From: Paludibacteraceae bacterium | GTDB lineage: Bacteria > Bacteroidota > Bacteroidia > Bacteroidales > Paludibacteraceae | NCBI GenBank assembly: GCA_024399965.1 | Contig: JAKSNJ010000007.1 | Coordinates: 2,436-66,435 of the forward strand | DNA: 64,000 nt | Direction: 5' to 3' | Shown: one piece after another, positions 43,815 through 51,219 of the stretch | How positions within the stretch are numbered: position 1 is the first letter of the stretch | Layout of the letters: every line of letters begins with the position of its first letter | Notes under the pieces: generated by a model | Told to the model about the DNA's origin: nothing | Databases searched by the model: none | Seen by the model: only the letters and a program-made list of their open reading frames with translations | Position numbers and translations under genes: made by a program

Positions 43815-44777
43815 ATGAGAAAAGTTTATAGTATATTGTTTGTTCTATTGGTGGGGGCGGGAATGACCGTACATGCCAAGGAACGGTTTGAGATGTTGCC
43901 CTACGGCGACATGGAATCGTGGGTAACGCGTTATATTAAGGAGTCAAAGTTCTTCAGCGGCAAAACCAAAACTATTTATGCCATTGCCTCTACCGACACA
44001 ACGTACACCACCACTCCCTTCCCGTATGGCAAAAACGGTAATCCGTGGTCTATCAGCAATGCGTACGCTTCCGTACTGGGTTGGATTAAAGTGAGTGGCA
44101 CAACGCGCCCCGAACGTCGTGGCAAGGGTTGGTGCTGCCGTATGGACTGCCGGTTGGAAGATGTGGTAGCAATGGGTATTGATCTCAAGTTGCAAATAGC
44201 CGGCACTATCTTCTTGGGCAAGACCTACGAGCCCGTGCCTCTGCGTGCTGCCAACGACCCCTACAGCGTGGTCGAAATGGGTGTGCCTTATACCCGTCGT
44301 CCCAAGGCCATTCAGTTGGATTACAAAGCCAAAGTAGAAGACTCCAATATCGTGACCTATGCCAAAGCCACTGCCCACCCCAAGAAACGCGAGGGGCGTG
44401 ACTGCGCCGAGGTATATGCTTTTCTTCAACACCGTTGGGAGGAAAACGGCAAACTCTACGCTGAGCGCATAGCCACCGCATACGAGCGCATCTGGAACGA
44501 CGTGCCTGAGTGGCAAAACGCACATCGTGTGCCCTTCCGCTACGGCGACATTTCCAAGCAGTCCAATTACCACGACTACGAGGGACTGAACTACCACGGT
44601 TTTCGTGCCAAGAACAGCAAGGGCGACATGGTGACTGTCAACGAAGTGGGGTACTCCACCACCGCCAAACCGACTCATCTGGTGCTGATGATTTCCTCCG
44701 GTTGCTACGAGGCCTTCATCGGGCATGACGGTAACATTTTCTGGGTAGATAATGTCGGACTGATTTATGATGAGTGA
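43815..44777 (+). CDS. Secreted PCMD-like (putative carbohydrate metabolism domain) protein
   Basis: Signal peptide. Motifs ..MESWVTR.., ..NPWSISNAY.. and a C-terminal ..FWVDNVGLIYD pattern as I recall them for PF13201-type Bacteroidales proteins. Confidence 0.5.
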   Translation: MRKVYSILFVLLVGAGMTVHAKERFEMLPYGDMESWVTRYIKESKFFSGKTKTIYAIASTDTTYTTTPFPYGKNGNPWSISNAYASVLGWIKVSGTTRPERRGKGWCCRMDCRLEDVVAMGIDLKLQIAGTIFLGKTYEPVPLRAANDPYSVVEMGVPYTRRPKAIQLDYKAKVEDSNIVTYAKATAHPKKREGRDCAEVYAFLQHRWEENGKLYAERIATAYERIWNDVPEWQNAHRVPFRYGDISKQSNYHDYEGLNYHGFRAKNSKGDMVTVNEVGYSTTAKPTHLVLMISSGCYEAFIGHDGNIFWVDNVGLIYDE

Positions 44778-45930
44778 GTGGCTGAACATTCCTATGTGGG
44801 AATATGTACTTGCCGGCGTGCTGGCGGTACTGTTCATTTACCAAGTGTATTTCTACGCGCGGTATATCGGCAAGGTAGGTCGGGGCAAAGGTGCCTGTGC
44901 TGCACAGCCAGAAGCCACACCTGCAACAGCGGACATGCCCGGGGTATCAGTCATCGTGTCGGCACGTAACGAAGAGGACAACCTGACCAACTACCTGCAG
45001 CAATTATTAGAGCAGGATTATCCCAAGTTTGAGGTCATTGTGGTCAATGACGGTTCGGAAGACCGCACCCAAATGGTGCTGGAGGAGTACCGCCTCAAAT
45101 ATACCAATTTACACGTCACTTTTGTGCCTACTGAGGCCCGCGTAACGTCCAGCAAGAAATTGGCACTGACGCTTGCAGTCAAGGCCGCCAATTATGAATA
45201 CCTGTTACTGACTGACGCCGACTGCGTACCCGAGTCCAATCAATGGATTAAATGCATGATGGCCCCGATAGCCGACAAGAACGAGAAGCAAATCGTATTG
45301 GGTTACAGCCCCTATTTCCCCGAAAAAACGGCCGTCAATGAGGTCATTCGGTTTGATACTTTGTTCACGGGCTTGCACTACATGGGTCGCGCCATGGCAG
45401 GACATCCATATATGGGCGTGGGGCGCAATATGCTCTACCGCCGGTCGATGTTTATGGCACAAAAGGGCTTTGCCGGACTGCTGATGATGCGTTCGGGCGA
45501 TGACGACCTGTTTGTGAACAAAGTGGCTACGCACAAAAATGTAGCAGTGTCTTGTTCGCCGGACGCATTGTGTTGGTCCGTTCCCAAACGCACCTATACG
45601 GAGTGGCTGATGCAAAAAAGAAGGCACCTGTCGGTTTCGCCCCACTATAAACAAAGTACGCGCATGATGTTGGGCATCGAACCGCTGACACGCGGGCTGT
45701 GGTATATGGCACTCATTGTATGCTTTGTTTGGGGTACGGCGTGGCTGAGTTTGGTGGCTTGGGTGCTGTTCGTGGTACGTCTGCTGATGCAAGTGGGTAT
45801 CATGAATCATACTGCCCGCAAACTCGGTGAACAGACCTTTGGCTTAGAGGTGCTGTGGTACGATATGTGTCTGCCCGTTCTGACGGCTTACCTGCTATCT
45901 ACACAACCCAAACACCCTGCAAAATGGTAA
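44767..45930 (+). CDS. Glycosyltransferase family 2, membrane-anchored
   Basis: VSVIVSARNEEDNL, IVVNDGSED, LTDADC, and C-terminal TM helices. Confidence 0.85.
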   Translation: MMSEWLNIPMWEYVLAGVLAVLFIYQVYFYARYIGKVGRGKGACAAQPEATPATADMPGVSVIVSARNEEDNLTNYLQQLLEQDYPKFEVIVVNDGSEDRTQMVLEEYRLKYTNLHVTFVPTEARVTSSKKLALTLAVKAANYEYLLLTDADCVPESNQWIKCMMAPIADKNEKQIVLGYSPYFPEKTAVNEVIRFDTLFTGLHYMGRAMAGHPYMGVGRNMLYRRSMFMAQKGFAGLLMMRSGDDDLFVNKVATHKNVAVSCSPDALCWSVPKRTYTEWLMQKRRHLSVSPHYKQSTRMMLGIEPLTRGLWYMALIVCFVWGTAWLSLVAWVLFVVRLLMQVGIMNHTARKLGEQTFGLEVLWYDMCLPVLTAYLLSTQPKHPAKW

Positions 45931-47158: not shown

Positions 47159-49141
47159 ATGAAAAAATGCTTATTGGGCTTGTTATGCTTGCCGATGTTA
47201 ATATCTTGTCAAAAACAACAGTTTAGTTACCACGTGGATAGATTTTACGATTTAGAGTTATTGCGCTACGAAGTGCCCGGTTGGGACCAATTGAGCGTGC
47301 AGCAAAAGACATTGGTGTACTACCTGTCCGAAGCCGCCTTGCAGGGGCGCGATATATTGTACGACCAAAACGGCCGTTACAACCTCCGTATCCGTCGGAC
47401 GCTGGAGAACTTATACACGAACTACCCCTATGACAAAAACACGGAGGAGTTTGCCCTGTTTGAGAAATACCTCAAGCGCGTGTGGTTCAGCAACGGTATT
47501 CACCACCACTACAGCGAAGATAAGTTCCTGCCCGAATTTACGCAGGAGTGGTTTGTAGAGGCATGTGCCCAAGCCGGTGTGGAATACGATGCAGCCATCT
47601 TGCCCGTTATGTTTGACCCTAACGTGATGGCTAAGCGCACTAACCAAGCTGCCGGTGTGGACTTAGTGGCTTGTTCTGCCGGCAATTACTACGGCGAGGG
47701 CGTGACCCAAGCCGAAGCTGAGGCATGGTATGAACAACATAAAGACACTACCGACGAACCACTGTGGATAGGGCTGAATAGCCAATTATGCAAGGATTCC
47801 ACTGGCGCTATTTACGAGCGCACCTATCGCATAGGTGGCTTATACGGCGAGGCGTTAGAGAAAATCAATTTCTGGTTAGAGAAGGCCTTGGAGGTGGCTG
47901 AAAACGATACCCAACGGGAAGTGATTGCCCACCTGATTGAATACAACCGTTCCGGTAATCTGCGCAGTTTCAATGCCTACTGCATCGCTTGGGTCAAGGA
48001 CCTTGAGAGCCGTGTGGACTTTGTGAACGGATTTACAGAGACCTATGCCGACCCCTTAGGCATCACGGGTACGTGGGAGTCGATTGTCAACTTCAAGGAC
48101 TTGGAGGCGACGCACCGTACCGAAATCATTTCCGCCAACGCACAGTGGTTTGAGGACCACTCCACCACCGACCCTATCTATAAGAAAGAGGAGGTAAAGG
48201 GTGTTAGTGCCAAGGTGATTACGGCTGCTATCTTGGCAGGTGACTGCTATCCGGCTACGCCTATCGGTATCAACCTGCCCAACGCCAACTGGATTCGCAA
48301 GTCGTATGGCAGCAAATCCGTTACGATAGACAACCTCGTTAAAGCATATAACGAGTCCGCCAAGGGCAACGGTTTCAACGAGGAGTTTATGATAGATGAC
48401 GAGATACGTGCGTTATATGACCAATATGGTGCCGTTTGCGGTGACTTGCATACCGACTTGCACGAGTGCGTCGGTCACGGTTCCGGTAAACTCATGCCGG
48501 GTGTGAGCAAGGATGCACTGAAGGAACATGCCTCCACCATAGAGGAAACACGTGCCGACCTGTTTGCCCTCTATTTCGTGGCAGACAGTAAATTGGTTGA
48601 GTTGGGGTTATTGCCGAACAAAGAGGCCTACAAGGCAGCTTATTACCAGCAGATGATGAATGGCTTGATGACGCAGTTGGTGCGTATCGAACCGGGTAAG
48701 GACATCGAGGAGGCACACATGCGCAATCGTCAGTTGATAGCCGCTTGGGTATTTGACCACTGTGAGAAGAACGAGATGGAAATCATTGAGCGCGATGGCA
48801 AACACTACTTGCAGATTAACGACTACGAGGGTGTTCGCCGTGTAGTAGGCGATATGTTAGCAGAGATACAGCGTATTACCTCCGAAGGCGACTATGCCGC
48901 GGCGAAGACATTGGTGGAGACGTATGCCGTTAAGGTGGATCAAGACTTGCATAAAGAGATTTTGGCGCGCTATGCTAAACTGAATTTGGCACCGTATAAG
49001 GGTTTTGTTAATCCTGTTTATACACCTGTTATGAACAAGAACGGTGTGATTACCGACGTCAAAATAGATTATACCGAAGGGTATGTAGAGCAGCACTTGC
49101 GCTATAGTCGAGACTACTCCAATCTGCCCGATGTGAATTGA
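47159..49141 (+). CDS. Dipeptidyl-peptidase III family (M49) lipoprotein
   Basis: HECVGHGSG zinc motif and downstream EE.RADL. Lipobox LISC. Confidence 0.8.
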   Translation: MKKCLLGLLCLPMLISCQKQQFSYHVDRFYDLELLRYEVPGWDQLSVQQKTLVYYLSEAALQGRDILYDQNGRYNLRIRRTLENLYTNYPYDKNTEEFALFEKYLKRVWFSNGIHHHYSEDKFLPEFTQEWFVEACAQAGVEYDAAILPVMFDPNVMAKRTNQAAGVDLVACSAGNYYGEGVTQAEAEAWYEQHKDTTDEPLWIGLNSQLCKDSTGAIYERTYRIGGLYGEALEKINFWLEKALEVAENDTQREVIAHLIEYNRSGNLRSFNAYCIAWVKDLESRVDFVNGFTETYADPLGITGTWESIVNFKDLEATHRTEIISANAQWFEDHSTTDPIYKKEEVKGVSAKVITAAILAGDCYPATPIGINLPNANWIRKSYGSKSVTIDNLVKAYNESAKGNGFNEEFMIDDEIRALYDQYGAVCGDLHTDLHECVGHGSGKLMPGVSKDALKEHASTIEETRADLFALYFVADSKLVELGLLPNKEAYKAAYYQQMMNGLMTQLVRIEPGKDIEEAHMRNRQLIAAWVFDHCEKNEMEIIERDGKHYLQINDYEGVRRVVGDMLAEIQRITSEGDYAAAKTLVETYAVKVDQDLHKEILARYAKLNLAPYKGFVNPVYTPVMNKNGVITDVKIDYTEGYVEQHLRYSRDYSNLPDVN

Positions 49142-50913
49142 TGGCTATTGACCTGCCAATATCAAAAAGTATAGCGAACCGTCTATTGATGTTGCAAGCT
49201 ATTCACGGAGACCCCCTCTTGGAGGTCTCTTGTGATATGCCCGACGATGTCCGCCTCATTCATGACGTATTAAGCCACCTATCACCTACCTGCTACAACC
49301 TACCACCTACAACCTATCACCTCTCCAATTGTGGCACGGCTATGCGTTTCCTGACGGCTTATTGTGCGCAGTTAGAGGGCTGTGAAGTCGTCTTGGACGG
49401 AGATGAACGTATGCACCACCGGCCGATAGGGCAATTGGTAGATGCTCTCGTGCGCGCAGGGGCGCATATAGAATATATAGGTGAGCAGGGCTATCCGCCT
49501 TTGCGTATTATGGGGCGTGCGTTGCCTCGTACTGCGATTACATTGCTGCACCCGCAATCGTCACAATTTGTAAGCGCATTGCTCTTGATGGGCTTTCCTG
49601 TAACGACCGACTGCCGTTCACCGTATATCGCTATGACCCAACACATCATAGCCAACTACCGTGCATTGTGCATTGCCAACCGTCCATTGGAGAAGGATTG
49701 GTCAGCTGCGGCTTTTTGGTATGAGTACGTGGCGTTGCATGGTGGCGAATTGGAGTTACCGGGGTTGAGTGCGCATAGTGTACAGGGAGATAAGGTAGTG
49801 GCAGACCTGTTCCGTCCGTTGGGGGTGGCAACCACCTACACCGATACAGGTATTCGAATACGCCGAACGGGTAATGTGAATGGCTGCCCAAGAGTGGTGG
49901 ATTTTACGGACTGTCCGGACCTTTACCCGGCAGTGGCTATTACTTATAGGCAGTTGGCTAAACCGTTGATAGCACGTGGCACAGCGTCCCTGCGTATTAA
50001 GGAAAGCGACCGCATCAAGGCCGTTCAGCAGCAAACGACCTACCACGACCACCGTATAGCCATGGCCTTGCTGGCTGCCGACCTGCCTTGCGACGATAAG
50101 GAATGTGTTTCCAAGTCCTACCCTCGTTTTGTAGAACAACTGTCAACTGTCAACTCTCAATTCTCAACTGTCATTCCGCGCCGAGGAATTAACGACGAGG
50201 GCAAGGGTAAGAAATATGCCTTGCATAAACTCATTTCTGCTGCCACTACCGACTATGTGTGGCTGATGGACGATGATGTTCTCCCAGCCCCCATTCTCCA
50301 TTCTCCATTCTCCATTCTCCATTTTCCTGCCGACCTATATATTTTGCCCCTGAAGATGGTGGAGGGACGGTCTTTATTGGAGCGTTTGCAGGTGGCTGAA
50401 TATGCAGCCATTCAGGAGGTGACAATGCGTACTGCGAAGCGGGGCAAGGCAGTGATGTGCAGTGGGGCGAACTTAATTGTGCGGAGAGAAAGGTGGTTGG
50501 AGAGTTATGCTGATTTGCATACGGACATACCCAGTGGCGATGATATGTTTTTGTTGGAGTCGTTTCGCCGTCGCGGTTTGCAGATAAGTGTGATTGACCG
50601 CCCCGAATATACGGCTACGGTTACTGCTATACCTTCGTGGCGTGCGTTTTTTAGGCAACGTATGCGTTGGGCAGGCAAGGCGCCTCACTATACGGACCGT
50701 TATATCATTCGTTACGGGGCTGTTGTGCTGGGGGCTAATATGCTGCAACTGCTTTGTCCGCCGGTGTTGCTGGTGAAGTTCCCGTATGAATATCGTCTCA
50801 TCAAAAAAAGAGACCCGCAGGTCTCTTTTTGGATTGCTCTGTTGTTAGAGGTGTTATACCCCTATTACATGTTATTAGTCCTCTTGGGAGGGCTCTTCCG
50901 TCGCAGCTGGTAA
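49138..50913 (+). CDS. aroA: Single ORF joining a 3-phosphoshikimate 1-carboxyvinyltransferase-like (AroA) region (about aa 1-335) to the C-terminal two-thirds of a GT2 glycosyltransferase
   Basis: AroA-like: SKSIANRLL, NCGTAMRFL, RMHHRPIG.LVDAL, SSQFVSALLL, SPYIAMT, LRIKESDR, DHRIAMA, SKSYP.F. GT2-like: GKGKKYAL...., LMDDDV, QRMRWAGK, and TM helices. Heptamer arrays lie at 49275, 49661, 50138 (the junction) and 50292. Confidence 0.7.
   Translation: MMAIDLPISKSIANRLLMLQAIHGDPLLEVSCDMPDDVRLIHDVLSHLSPTCYNLPPTTYHLSNCGTAMRFLTAYCAQLEGCEVVLDGDERMHHRPIGQLVDALVRAGAHIEYIGEQGYPPLRIMGRALPRTAITLLHPQSSQFVSALLLMGFPVTTDCRSPYIAMTQHIIANYRALCIANRPLEKDWSAAAFWYEYVALHGGELELPGLSAHSVQGDKVVADLFRPLGVATTYTDTGIRIRRTGNVNGCPRVVDFTDCPDLYPAVAITYRQLAKPLIARGTASLRIKESDRIKAVQQQTTYHDHRIAMALLAADLPCDDKECVSKSYPRFVEQLSTVNSQFSTVIPRRGINDEGKGKKYALHKLISAATTDYVWLMDDDVLPAPILHSPFSILHFPADLYILPLKMVEGRSLLERLQVAEYAAIQEVTMRTAKRGKAVMCSGANLIVRRERWLESYADLHTDIPSGDDMFLLESFRRRGLQISVIDRPEYTATVTAIPSWRAFFRQRMRWAGKAPHYTDRYIIRYGAVVLGANMLQLLCPPVLLVKFPYEYRLIKKRDPQVSFWIALLLEVLYPYYMLLVLLGGLFRRSW
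49275..49323 (+). repeat. Heptamer micro-array, 7 units (ccaccta tcaccta cctgcta caaccta ccaccta caaccta tcacctc), in frame in the AroA-like region
   Basis: Direct reading. It encodes ..HLSPTCYNLPPTTYHLS.. immediately before the NCGTAMR motif. Confidence 0.9.
49661..49688 (+). repeat. Heptamer micro-array (gtgcatt gtgcatt gccaacc gtccatt), in frame in the AroA-like region
   Basis: Direct reading. It shares ccgtgcattgtgcattg with the intergenic array at 43451..43468. Confidence 0.8.
50138..50172 (+). repeat. Heptamer micro-array, 5 units (aactgtc aactgtc aactctc aattctc aactgtc), at the AroA/GT2 junction
   Basis: Direct reading. It encodes EQLSTVNSQFSTV. Confidence 0.9.
50292..50326 (+). repeat. 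Heptamer micro-array, 5 units (cattctc x4, cattttc), in frame in the GT2-like region
   Basis: Direct reading. It encodes PILHSPFSILHFP. Confidence 0.9.
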
Positions 50914-51219
50914 TGCCTCTTGTGCAGTAGGAAGTGCGCTGGCAGCTTGCTCTACTTGTTCGGTAATAGCACTTTCGTCAGCGGAAGCTTCTTGTTGCCC
51001 TTTGCTCATGCCAACGGCTAAAATACTCAGGAAAACAATGATAGCAGCCAATGTCCAACTGGCTTTTTCCAAAAAGTCGGCAGTCTTGGGCGCGCCCATT
51101 ACTTGGTTACCACTGGCAAAACCGGCAGCCAAACCTCCACCTTTACTGTTTTGAACCAATACCAAAAGAGTCAGCAGAATAGCTGCAATAACAATCAAAA
51201 TTGTAAAAAGAATGTACAT
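50875..51219 (-). CDS. secG: Preprotein translocase subunit SecG
   Basis: The N-terminal TM helix followed by LVQNSKGGGLAAGF is the SecG signature. The acidic C-terminal tail overlaps the convergent ORF end by 39 nt. Confidence 0.88.
   Translation of the reverse strand: MYILFTILIVIAAILLTLLVLVQNSKGGGLAAGFASGNQVMGAPKTADFLEKASWTLAAIIVFLSILAVGMSKGQQEASADESAITEQVEQAASALPTAQEALPAATEEPSQED

Follow-up and report, generated by a model that had tools for sequence, protein, structure and literature searches.

5-Enolpyruvylshikimate-3-phosphate (EPSP) synthase (EPSPS), the product of aroA, is usually a single-domain enzyme in bacteria (PMC9394408). EPSPS is combined with a second enzyme in the pentafunctional fungal AROM protein, in the bacterial EPSPS–cytidylate kinase protein (NF008816), and in the prephenate dehydrogenase (TyrA)–EPSPS protein (NF011381). 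Here we describe a gene in a 64,000-nucleotide stretch of DNA, referred to as the window, from a Paludibacteraceae bacterium (GenBank assembly GCA_024399965.1, contig JAKSNJ010000007.1, positions 2,436 to 66,435 of the forward strand). The gene encodes a compact EPSPS (AroA) part followed in the same reading frame by a reduced glycosyltransferase of family 2 (GT2). Unlike the second enzymes in the multi-domain proteins above, the partner is a membrane GT2, and not an enzyme of the shikimate or aromatic pathway or a nucleotide enzyme; no description of an EPSPS–GT2 fusion was found in the literature searched. The gene product is a genuine, selected two-enzyme fusion protein, joined by a repeat-encoded linker. 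The explanation that we favor, and consider likely as a whole, is that a mini-EPSPS and a reduced GT2, which fold independently, were fused, trimmed, split, and re-fused via repeats, and that short tandem repeats drive this labile history of fusion and fission at least in part.

The two parts and the linker can each be compared with a described system. Canonical AroA (PF00275, TIGR01356; Escherichia coli 1G6S, Vibrio cholerae 3NVS) and the window form share the two-lobed fold and all checked catalytic and binding residues, and both are the sole copy alongside aroK and aroC. The window form differs in having approximately 335 rather than 410–427 amino acids (aa), in the absence of four segments, and in its covalent connection to a membrane protein. 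The membrane GT2 synthases, i.e., hyaluronan synthase (7SP6/8SMM), chitin synthase (8K3W), BcsA (4P00), and the PgaC/NodC/HpnI-like proteins in accordance with NCBIfam, share with the window part the GT-A core, the DxD, GDD, and Q(R)xRW motifs, an interface helix, and C-terminal membrane helices, whereas the window part comprises only approximately 250 aa, lacks the first membrane helix and the α1–β2 segment with its DDxSxD motif, and has an identity of approximately 15%. Furthermore, the window GT2 has far fewer membrane helices than the processive synthases, and a translocation channel is therefore doubtful. Heptamer repeats of the unit TAACTGA have been reported in Beggiatoaceae, cyanobacteria, and five Bacteroidetes, the underlying mechanism being unknown (PMC4679880), and a general excess of heptamers in bacteria has been mentioned (PMC4692102). 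The repeats in the window's genome are likewise short (2–7 units), abundant throughout the genome, and often located at gene boundaries. By contrast, they comprise many distinct units, lie for the most part within long open frames, and in one instance form an inter-domain linker.

Two reduced enzymes in one reading frame

The open reading frame (ORF) of 591 aa given in a preliminary description of this DNA is present as stated (Table 1). A protein collection search retrieved at least 120 full-length fused homologues with 54–83% identity, all of which carry both Pfam domains; the few named ones belong to Paludibacteraceae or Bacteroidales, and the public names of the proteins are "glycosyltransferase" or "hypothetical." When 20 and 49 of these homologues are aligned, neither half shows any variation in its motifs. 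The ratio of nonsynonymous to synonymous substitution rates (dN/dS; Nei–Gojobori method, arrays left out) was determined against the closest relative, L024, an independent assembly from another sequencing run with 83% aa identity; the values of 0.07 (AroA part) and 0.12 (GT2 part) indicate strong purifying selection on both halves. The preliminary description had left the choice between a genuine fusion and a decaying pair. A recent accident heading to decay would account for an AroA score under the equivalog cut-off, for the shortening of both halves, and for four repeat tracts within the frame, but the dN/dS values exclude a pseudogenising pair; the catalytic motifs invariant in 49 homologues, the position of the AroA part as sole EPSPS candidate within otherwise complete pathways, and the confident folds predicted for both domains also speak against it. 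We regard decay as extremely improbable, and of the two options only the genuine fusion stands. The enzymatic activity of each half is a prediction.

The AroA part was already recognisable as EPSP-synthase-like in the preliminary description, where it also appeared shorter than the expected 410–430 aa, and both impressions hold. It matches Pfam EPSP_synthase (PF00275) over residues ~4–335 with 148.1 bits, compared with a gathering score of 22.8. The AroA motifs LPISKS..NR, NCGTAMR, RMHHRPI, SSQF, SPYI, QGD, CPD, KESDR, DHR, and KSYP are found in the window. In an alignment to the solved EPSPS structures 3NVS and 5XWB, the equivalents of K22, S23, R27, N94, G96, R100, R124, and S169–Q171, and of D313, K340, E341, R344, H385, R386, and K411, are kept; in the numbering of E. 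coli EPSPS, these are the residues of shikimate-3-phosphate (S3P) and phosphoenolpyruvate (PEP) binding and of catalysis. In the two alignments of homologues, most columns of the checked residues are either invariant or conserved to 90% or more. Compared with the solved structures, four segments are deleted, namely before NCGTAMR, around SPYI, before DWSAA, and, with approximately 30 aa, between KESDR and DHR; the peripheral loss totals approximately 90 aa. An AlphaFold2 (AF2) model of the whole protein has a mean predicted local distance difference test (pLDDT) value of 85.7, with values of ~85–96 over most of residues 1–335. The secondary structure read from this model suggests that the six folding units retain their helices and that trimming has affected mainly β-hairpins. 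In Foldseek comparisons, the AroA part aligns with closed, liganded EPSPS at a template modelling (TM) score of 0.67, with target-normalized values (TMt) up to 0.68. The top 50 matches are all EPSPS or EPSPS-derived chains, and the smallest full-length EPSPS chain among the matches has 400 residues (7M0O). If active, the 335-aa enzyme would be approximately 65–90 residues smaller than the characterised enzymes known to us. It would indicate which parts of the glyphosate target are dispensable. Classification with models of canonical length would overlook or mislabel such a protein.

Apart from the fusion gene, PF00275 is represented in the window's genome by murA alone, which adjoins murB. A search for a second aroA elsewhere, as proposed in the preliminary description, found none in this genome, and in G022 and G051, two genus genomes that are 100% complete, the aroA model matched only the fusion locus and murA. 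Three genus genomes of 98–100% completeness, which carry aroK, aroE, and aroC, yielded no EPSPS candidate besides the compact AroA. The steps flanking EPSPS exist, since aroB, aroC, aroK, and aroE were found, aroB having been looked at in the window's genome only. This gene content indirectly supports formation of EPSP from S3P and PEP by the AroA part. The cell most likely has no other EPSP synthase, the enzyme of the sixth step of the shikimate pathway. As a separate observation, aroC lies on the contig of the aroA–GT2 locus, at a distance of 6–20 kb, in G022 (contig C7) and G051 (contig C2), and on a different contig from the fusion gene in the window's genome.

The C-terminal part (residues ~341–591) is a membrane-anchored GT2 of the hyaluronan/chitin/cellulose-synthase type. 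Residues ~350–578 match the Pfam GT2 families PF13641 (42.9 bits, threshold 27), PF13632 (30 bits, threshold 27), and PF13506 (28.4 bits, threshold 21.7). These matches open at profile position ~60–67 and the DDxSxD motif is absent, in agreement with the preliminary description, in which the GT2 was said to start mid-domain without its N-terminal segment. The part begins at VIPRRGINDEGKGKK and is without the first transmembrane (TM) helix and the α1–β2 segment; the complete N-terminal half of the GT-A fold (β1–α1–β2 with the nucleotide-binding DDxSxD motif) is not found. The GT2 of full-length relatives comprises 335–376 aa with an N-terminal TM helix and the motifs ..VVVACRNE.. and ..IILVNDNSTDD... 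The remaining motifs, D378–D380, G467–D469, and Q507–W511, are invariant across the 49 homologues, and the predicted helices after the catalytic core span residues 501–588. Modelled alone, the GT2 part has a pLDDT of 85.9 and a predicted TM score (pTM) of 0.83, and its best Foldseek matches are hyaluronan synthases (query-normalized TM score 0.60–0.64, E ~1e-5), followed by chitin and cellulose synthases. Searches of NCBIfam and of PDB sequences with the full-length GT2 of a relative yielded generic matches only (PgaC/IcaA, HpnI, CruG, NodC, and GtrB), and consequently no substrate is assigned. In the GT2 half, selection thus maintains a GT-A fold from which the α1–β2 segment is missing. At a distance of 3.2 kb, the fusion gene is preceded upstream by a GT2 paralogue of the same broad membrane family, a full-length protein of 387 aa with an N-terminal TM helix and the motifs VSVIVSARNEE and VVNDGSEDRT, and G022 has a paralogue in the equivalent relative position.

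Fused and split states and the history of the junction

Most of 61 genomes of the family carry a stand-alone AroA with an open frame of approximately 400–440 aa, plus MurA. In several genera of the family (represented by G020, G009, G049, G032, and G060), an orthologue of the GT2 lies directly downstream of aroA; the two genes overlap by 8 nucleotides (nt) in G020, and a 364-aa AroA and a 335-aa GT2 are separated by a 25-nt gap in G009. Across the order, the GT2 family occurs in 115 of 151 sampled genomes and does not adjoin aroA where coordinates are comparable; aroA–GT2 adjacency is therefore a family-level feature. An ancient aroA–GT2 operon had been considered and was dropped on this ground.

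Within the genus, the locus is present in 119 of 121 species genomes. Ninety-one loci were fetched and typed by tblastn. Two of them (L114 and L115) were left untyped because no AroA part was present, and 90 typed rows, including the window, were obtained. To the question raised in the preliminary description, whether orthologous loci comprise one gene or two, the answer is both: 44 typed loci, including the window, are fused, 39 within the genus are split, and 5 are out-of-genus pairs of two genes. In 31 split species, the GT2 is in the −1 frame and its ATG lies 1–34 nt upstream of the aroA stop. The conserved split junction is ..GAA CAR TTA TGY.., which reads E-Q-L-C in aroA and contains the GT2 ATG, and the GT2 start peptide is M-Q/S-V/I-T-x-I-V/I-P-R-R-G. 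Three species have a lone in-frame TAA between the halves, and in six (L105, L106, L107, L108, L067, and L104) approximately 0.6–3.2 kb separates aroA from a short GT2. One further locus, L058 (G129:C8), contains three TGA and one TAA within the fusion-protein match; genuine decay of this copy, misassembly, or another code may account for them.

A maximum-likelihood tree of the concatenated halves was constructed from 86 rows and 578 columns, comprising 82 species of the genus and rooted on four out-of-genus pairs. The fused and split states change at least 13 times on this tree, and at least 7 changes are forced by branches with an SH-aLRT support of at least 95; shuffled labels need 29 changes. 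The deepest branches of the genus are fused, with graded remnants of the GT2 N-terminus, e.g., ISLLIPFRN....VWLIDDHSEDNS in L068 and FVVPYRH..IVLIDDGGKGKK in L043. The genus can be regarded as a natural series of adjacent pair, fusion, trimming, fission, and re-fusion, in which repeats at the boundary supply the changes of frame.

The junction of the window differs from that of its split relatives at one site. The split species share the GAACARTTATGY junction, and the window has the CAACTGT array there, with a net gain of 13 nt and with CTG in place of the GT2 ATG. The array replaces the GAA CAR TTA TGY of the split relatives, including the GT2 ATG, together with the following aroA stop, and a gain of 13 nt relative to a typical split relative is the shift required for the −1 frame to come into register. 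The clade of the window comprises 18 rows, of which 14 are split and 4 fused, and the rows nearest to it are L073, which is split, and two fused loci whose linker is unrelated. Because the clade is mostly split and the array sits at the junction, we read the window's fusion as secondary: in this lineage, the CAACTGT array probably re-fused the pair. The preliminary description had proposed that array expansion or recombination deleted the aroA stop, the spacer, and the 5′-end of the GT2. This fits the history as two distinct events: the array replaced the stop/ATG junction, whereas the 5′-end of the GT2 was lost deep in the genus and not via the array.

The most parsimonious order of events may be outlined as follows. 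An ancestor in the family would have had aroA directly upstream of a full-length GT2. Close to the base of the genus to which the window belongs, the two would have been joined and the GT2 would have lost its membrane helix, followed by stepwise trimming of the GT-A N-terminus. Fission would then have produced two overlapping genes, the final codons of aroA containing the GT2 ATG, and re-fusion would have occurred repeatedly; in the lineage of the window, the CAACTGT array would have overwritten the ATG/stop junction and joined both frames. Fusion may be tolerated since both parts face the cytoplasm, and it is dispensable, as shown by the many sister species in which the genes are separate. 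The view that this is a natural bifunctional protein with array-encoded linkers, offered in the preliminary description, fits the present state with its fused homologues, purifying selection, and repeat linkers. Relatives that are fused without repeats had been named there as grounds for refutation; this is borne out by half, since the architecture is indeed shared, but many of the relatives carry other repeats at the same sites.

Tandem repeats and alternative explanations

The junction array and the further arrays in the gene were identified with Tandem Repeats Finder (Table 1). The five-unit array encoding STVNSQFSTV, as previously described, corresponds to the linker array. Of the three further in-frame arrays named in the same description, those at 49275 and 50292 are borne out, whereas the repeat at 49661, with 2.1 copies, is not significant alone. 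Array 1 encodes ..SPTCYNLPPTTYHLS.., and the loop that contains it corresponds to a longer β-hairpin in canonical EPSPS; the site varies from 2 to 18 aa among the 49 homologues, and the window is 21 nt longer there than L024. The site at 49661 is the most length-variable loop of the family (1–41 aa), the linker site varies from 0 to 12 aa, and the array that follows the DDD motif and encodes PILHSPFSILHFP occupies a loop site of 2–25 aa. All four sites are indel-variable regions of the 49-sequence alignment and have the lowest model confidence of the protein (pLDDT ~69–81). The orthologous linker array of L024 has 37 nt as in the window, with several units changed in concert, and its GT2-loop array has 37 nt at the same place with a different unit (CCTRCWA). 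The identity between the window and L024 is 32–70% inside arrays and 82% elsewhere.

Such arrays are abundant in the genome of the window. Period-7 arrays number 298, compared with 38 expected from an order-3 Markov control, an approximately 8-fold excess, and in the same whole-genome comparison (G000) periods 11 (181 versus 29), 9 (144 versus 29), and 5 (38 versus 0) are also in excess. Genome-wide, 42 distinct canonical heptamer units occur. Arrays of period 7, 14, or 21 lie inside open frames of at least 150 codons in 62% of cases, compared with 90% of random segments; they are thus depleted in genes, and approximately 200 are still translated. Only 4 open frames in the genome have at least three arrays of at least three units, and the fusion gene is among them. 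Among the linkers of other fused species, 22 of 34 best fit a period of 7, 9, or 11 nt, compared with 17% of control segments. Period 11 dominates with 13 of the 34 linkers, and period 7 accounts for 3. A role of heptamers as the general linker material was dropped for this reason, and the claim was widened to 7-, 9-, and 11-nt repeats. Within the overall explanation, the other arrays are likely to be passengers of a genome-wide mini-repeat process that are kept only in insertion-tolerant loops. The locus provides a concrete, testable case of short tandem repeats making and undoing domain fusions. Longer insertions were also noted in the homologues: an approximately 26-aa peptide (..FTEDSATSVRRSGGNKISSVENKINLDF..) occurs in an AroA loop of P0035, P0071, and P0087 and in a GT2 loop of P0105, and a second cassette (..SRSQGVDCE.KVV..) occurs at two different loops (P0018 and P0028/P0087). 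These look like mobile in-frame DNA cassettes.

The repeats invite two further readings of the open frame. One is that a repeat was misassembled or missequenced, so that two genes of the true genome appear as a single frame, as might be suspected from a metagenome-assembled genome (MAG) of 44 contigs, from the proneness of repeats to errors, and from the split state of L073, the nearest neighbour on the tree. However, L024 keeps the frame open through orthologous arrays of equal length, 43 further species are fused, and the window junction has no GT2 start codon, CTG replacing ATG. We give an artefact hardly any credence and rejected it, as we did the decaying pair. The other reading is that the arrays are contingency switches, in which the linker or the GT2 loop would gain or lose a single 7-nt unit, the resulting frame shift turning the GT2 half on or off within the population. 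A unit length indivisible by three, a host enzyme of surface-glycan type, and a junction frame that varies between sister species are all compatible with a switch. By contrast, the linker and GT2-loop arrays have equal lengths in the window and L024 and array 1 differs by exactly 21 nt, a pattern that fits selection for an open frame. A frame shift in array 1 or 2 would also destroy the sole EPSPS, and the arrays are short (5–7 units) and imperfect (73–96% matches). Switching is accordingly considered unlikely, and passenger arrays in tolerant loops remain our preferred reading.

The relation between the two halves is probably mere adjacency. The opposite reading is that the halves work as a unit, the EPSPS-like domain serving the GT2 by replacing its nucleotide-binding half or by MurA-like enolpyruvyl transfer to its sugar product. 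It draws on the persistence of aroA–GT2 adjacency or overlap across several family genera and almost all 119 genus genomes, on the repeated fusion, and on the fact that the GT2 lost exactly its donor-nucleotide-binding part. Nevertheless, all S3P- and PEP-binding residues of EPSPS are kept, the AroA part is the only EPSPS candidate in genomes with aroK and aroC, 0.6–3.2 kb separates the genes in six species, and the GT2 family is common across the order yet is not found beside aroA. Furthermore, the pTM is 0.63 for the whole protein and 0.83 for the GT2 part alone, with no hint of a fixed interface. Such coupling appears improbable to us, and slightly more so its strictest form, a single catalytic machine in which the EPSPS lobe would supply the lost phospho-sugar or nucleotide surface or would add an enolpyruvyl group to the GT2 product in the manner of MurA. 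If true, persistent adjacency, overlap, and repeated fusion would mark an undescribed membrane pathway from chorismate/PEP chemistry to a glycan or glycolipid.

Several points weigh against the explanation by two independently folding enzymes with a labile junction. The AroA part scores 171.2 bits on the NCBIfam equivalog TIGR01356, under the cut-off of 287.25, a shortfall attributed to the deletion of the four segments; the AroA of the canonical family relative G020 scores 290 bits on the same model. To our knowledge, no EPSPS this small has been characterised, and, given the score and the size, the activity of the AroA part could be lost or altered. The GT2 is without the GT-A portion that normally helps nucleotide binding. 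The MAG that contains the window is only 83% complete, and the frame is supported by one independent assembly, L024, with its orthologous arrays of equal length. Moreover, the loci were chosen from a match table rather than as a random sample, and the tree, a quick gene tree, carries long-branch warnings. Frameshift errors of MAGs could underlie some of the split calls, and it is the outgroup rooting, together with the graded N-termini, that sets the direction of fusion followed by fission.

Gene boundaries and neighbours

The positions of the features are compiled in Table 1.

Table 1. Features of the aroA–GT2 fusion gene and adjacent elements (positions in the window)
Feature	Position	Strand	Basis	Remarks
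Whole AroA–GT2 ORF	49138..50913	+		591 codons counted from TTG 49138
Compact EPSPS (AroA) domain	49141..50142	+	Pfam, TIGR01356, alignment, AF2, Foldseek	~335 aa
Array 1	49275..49322	+	Tandem Repeats Finder	CCACCTA x6.9, 73% matches
GTGCATT repeat	49661..49675	+		2.1 copies, encodes ALCIAN; not significant alone
Linker array	50137..50173	+		CAACTGT x5.3, 86% matches; encodes STVNSQFSTV
Reduced GT-A catalytic core	50158..50688	+	Pfam, alignments, AF2	Residues ~341–517
DDD motif	50269..50277	+		SGDD after it
GT2-loop array (array 4)	50291..50327	+		CCATTCT x5.3, 96% matches; loop after DDD
QRMRW motif	50656..50670	+		
C-terminal helices, predicted membrane-embedded	50698..50901	+	AF2, Foldseek	Residues ~521–588
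Terminator-like hairpin of secG	50803..50830	−		45 nt downstream of secG stop, within GT2 codons for KKRDPQVS
SecG gene	50875..51219	−	ORF call, Pfam	Convergent
Full-length GT2 paralogue	44767..45930	+		387 aa

The second codon of the ORF, ATG 49141, is the likelier start, because a database protein that is 100% identical to the window fusion protein (P0001, from the protein collection search) is 590 aa long; this ATG forms a TGATG overlap with the TGA stop of the upstream M49 peptidase gene. The gene order on the plus strand is PCMD protein, full-length GT2 paralogue, DUF3467, PNP/UDP phosphorylase, M49 peptidase, and fusion gene, and secG is followed on the minus strand by LptE and then a sigma-54 activator. 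The final 39 nt of secG overlap the 3′-end of the fusion ORF, as noted in the preliminary description, and the same overlap is found in L024.

The hairpin downstream of secG has the structure AAAAAGAGACC-ugcg-GGUCUCUUUUU with an 11-bp stem, followed by a U run. A consensus terminator scan did not report it; it was revealed by RNA folding, in which a 91-nt stretch with the hairpin yields −24.3 kcal/mol with a z-score of −3.7. Both arms are formed by the codons of the KKRD..VS motif, and the hairpin is retained, with differing loop sequences, in approximately 30 relatives that keep this motif; the nearly invariant peptide may thus be constrained at the RNA and the protein level alike. Finally, in the stretch 50738..50913, the last 58 codons of the gene have a proportion of synonymous differences (pS) of 0.10 relative to L024, compared with 0.38–0.60 in the remainder of the gene, and this low-pS stretch reaches well past the 39-nt overlap with secG.

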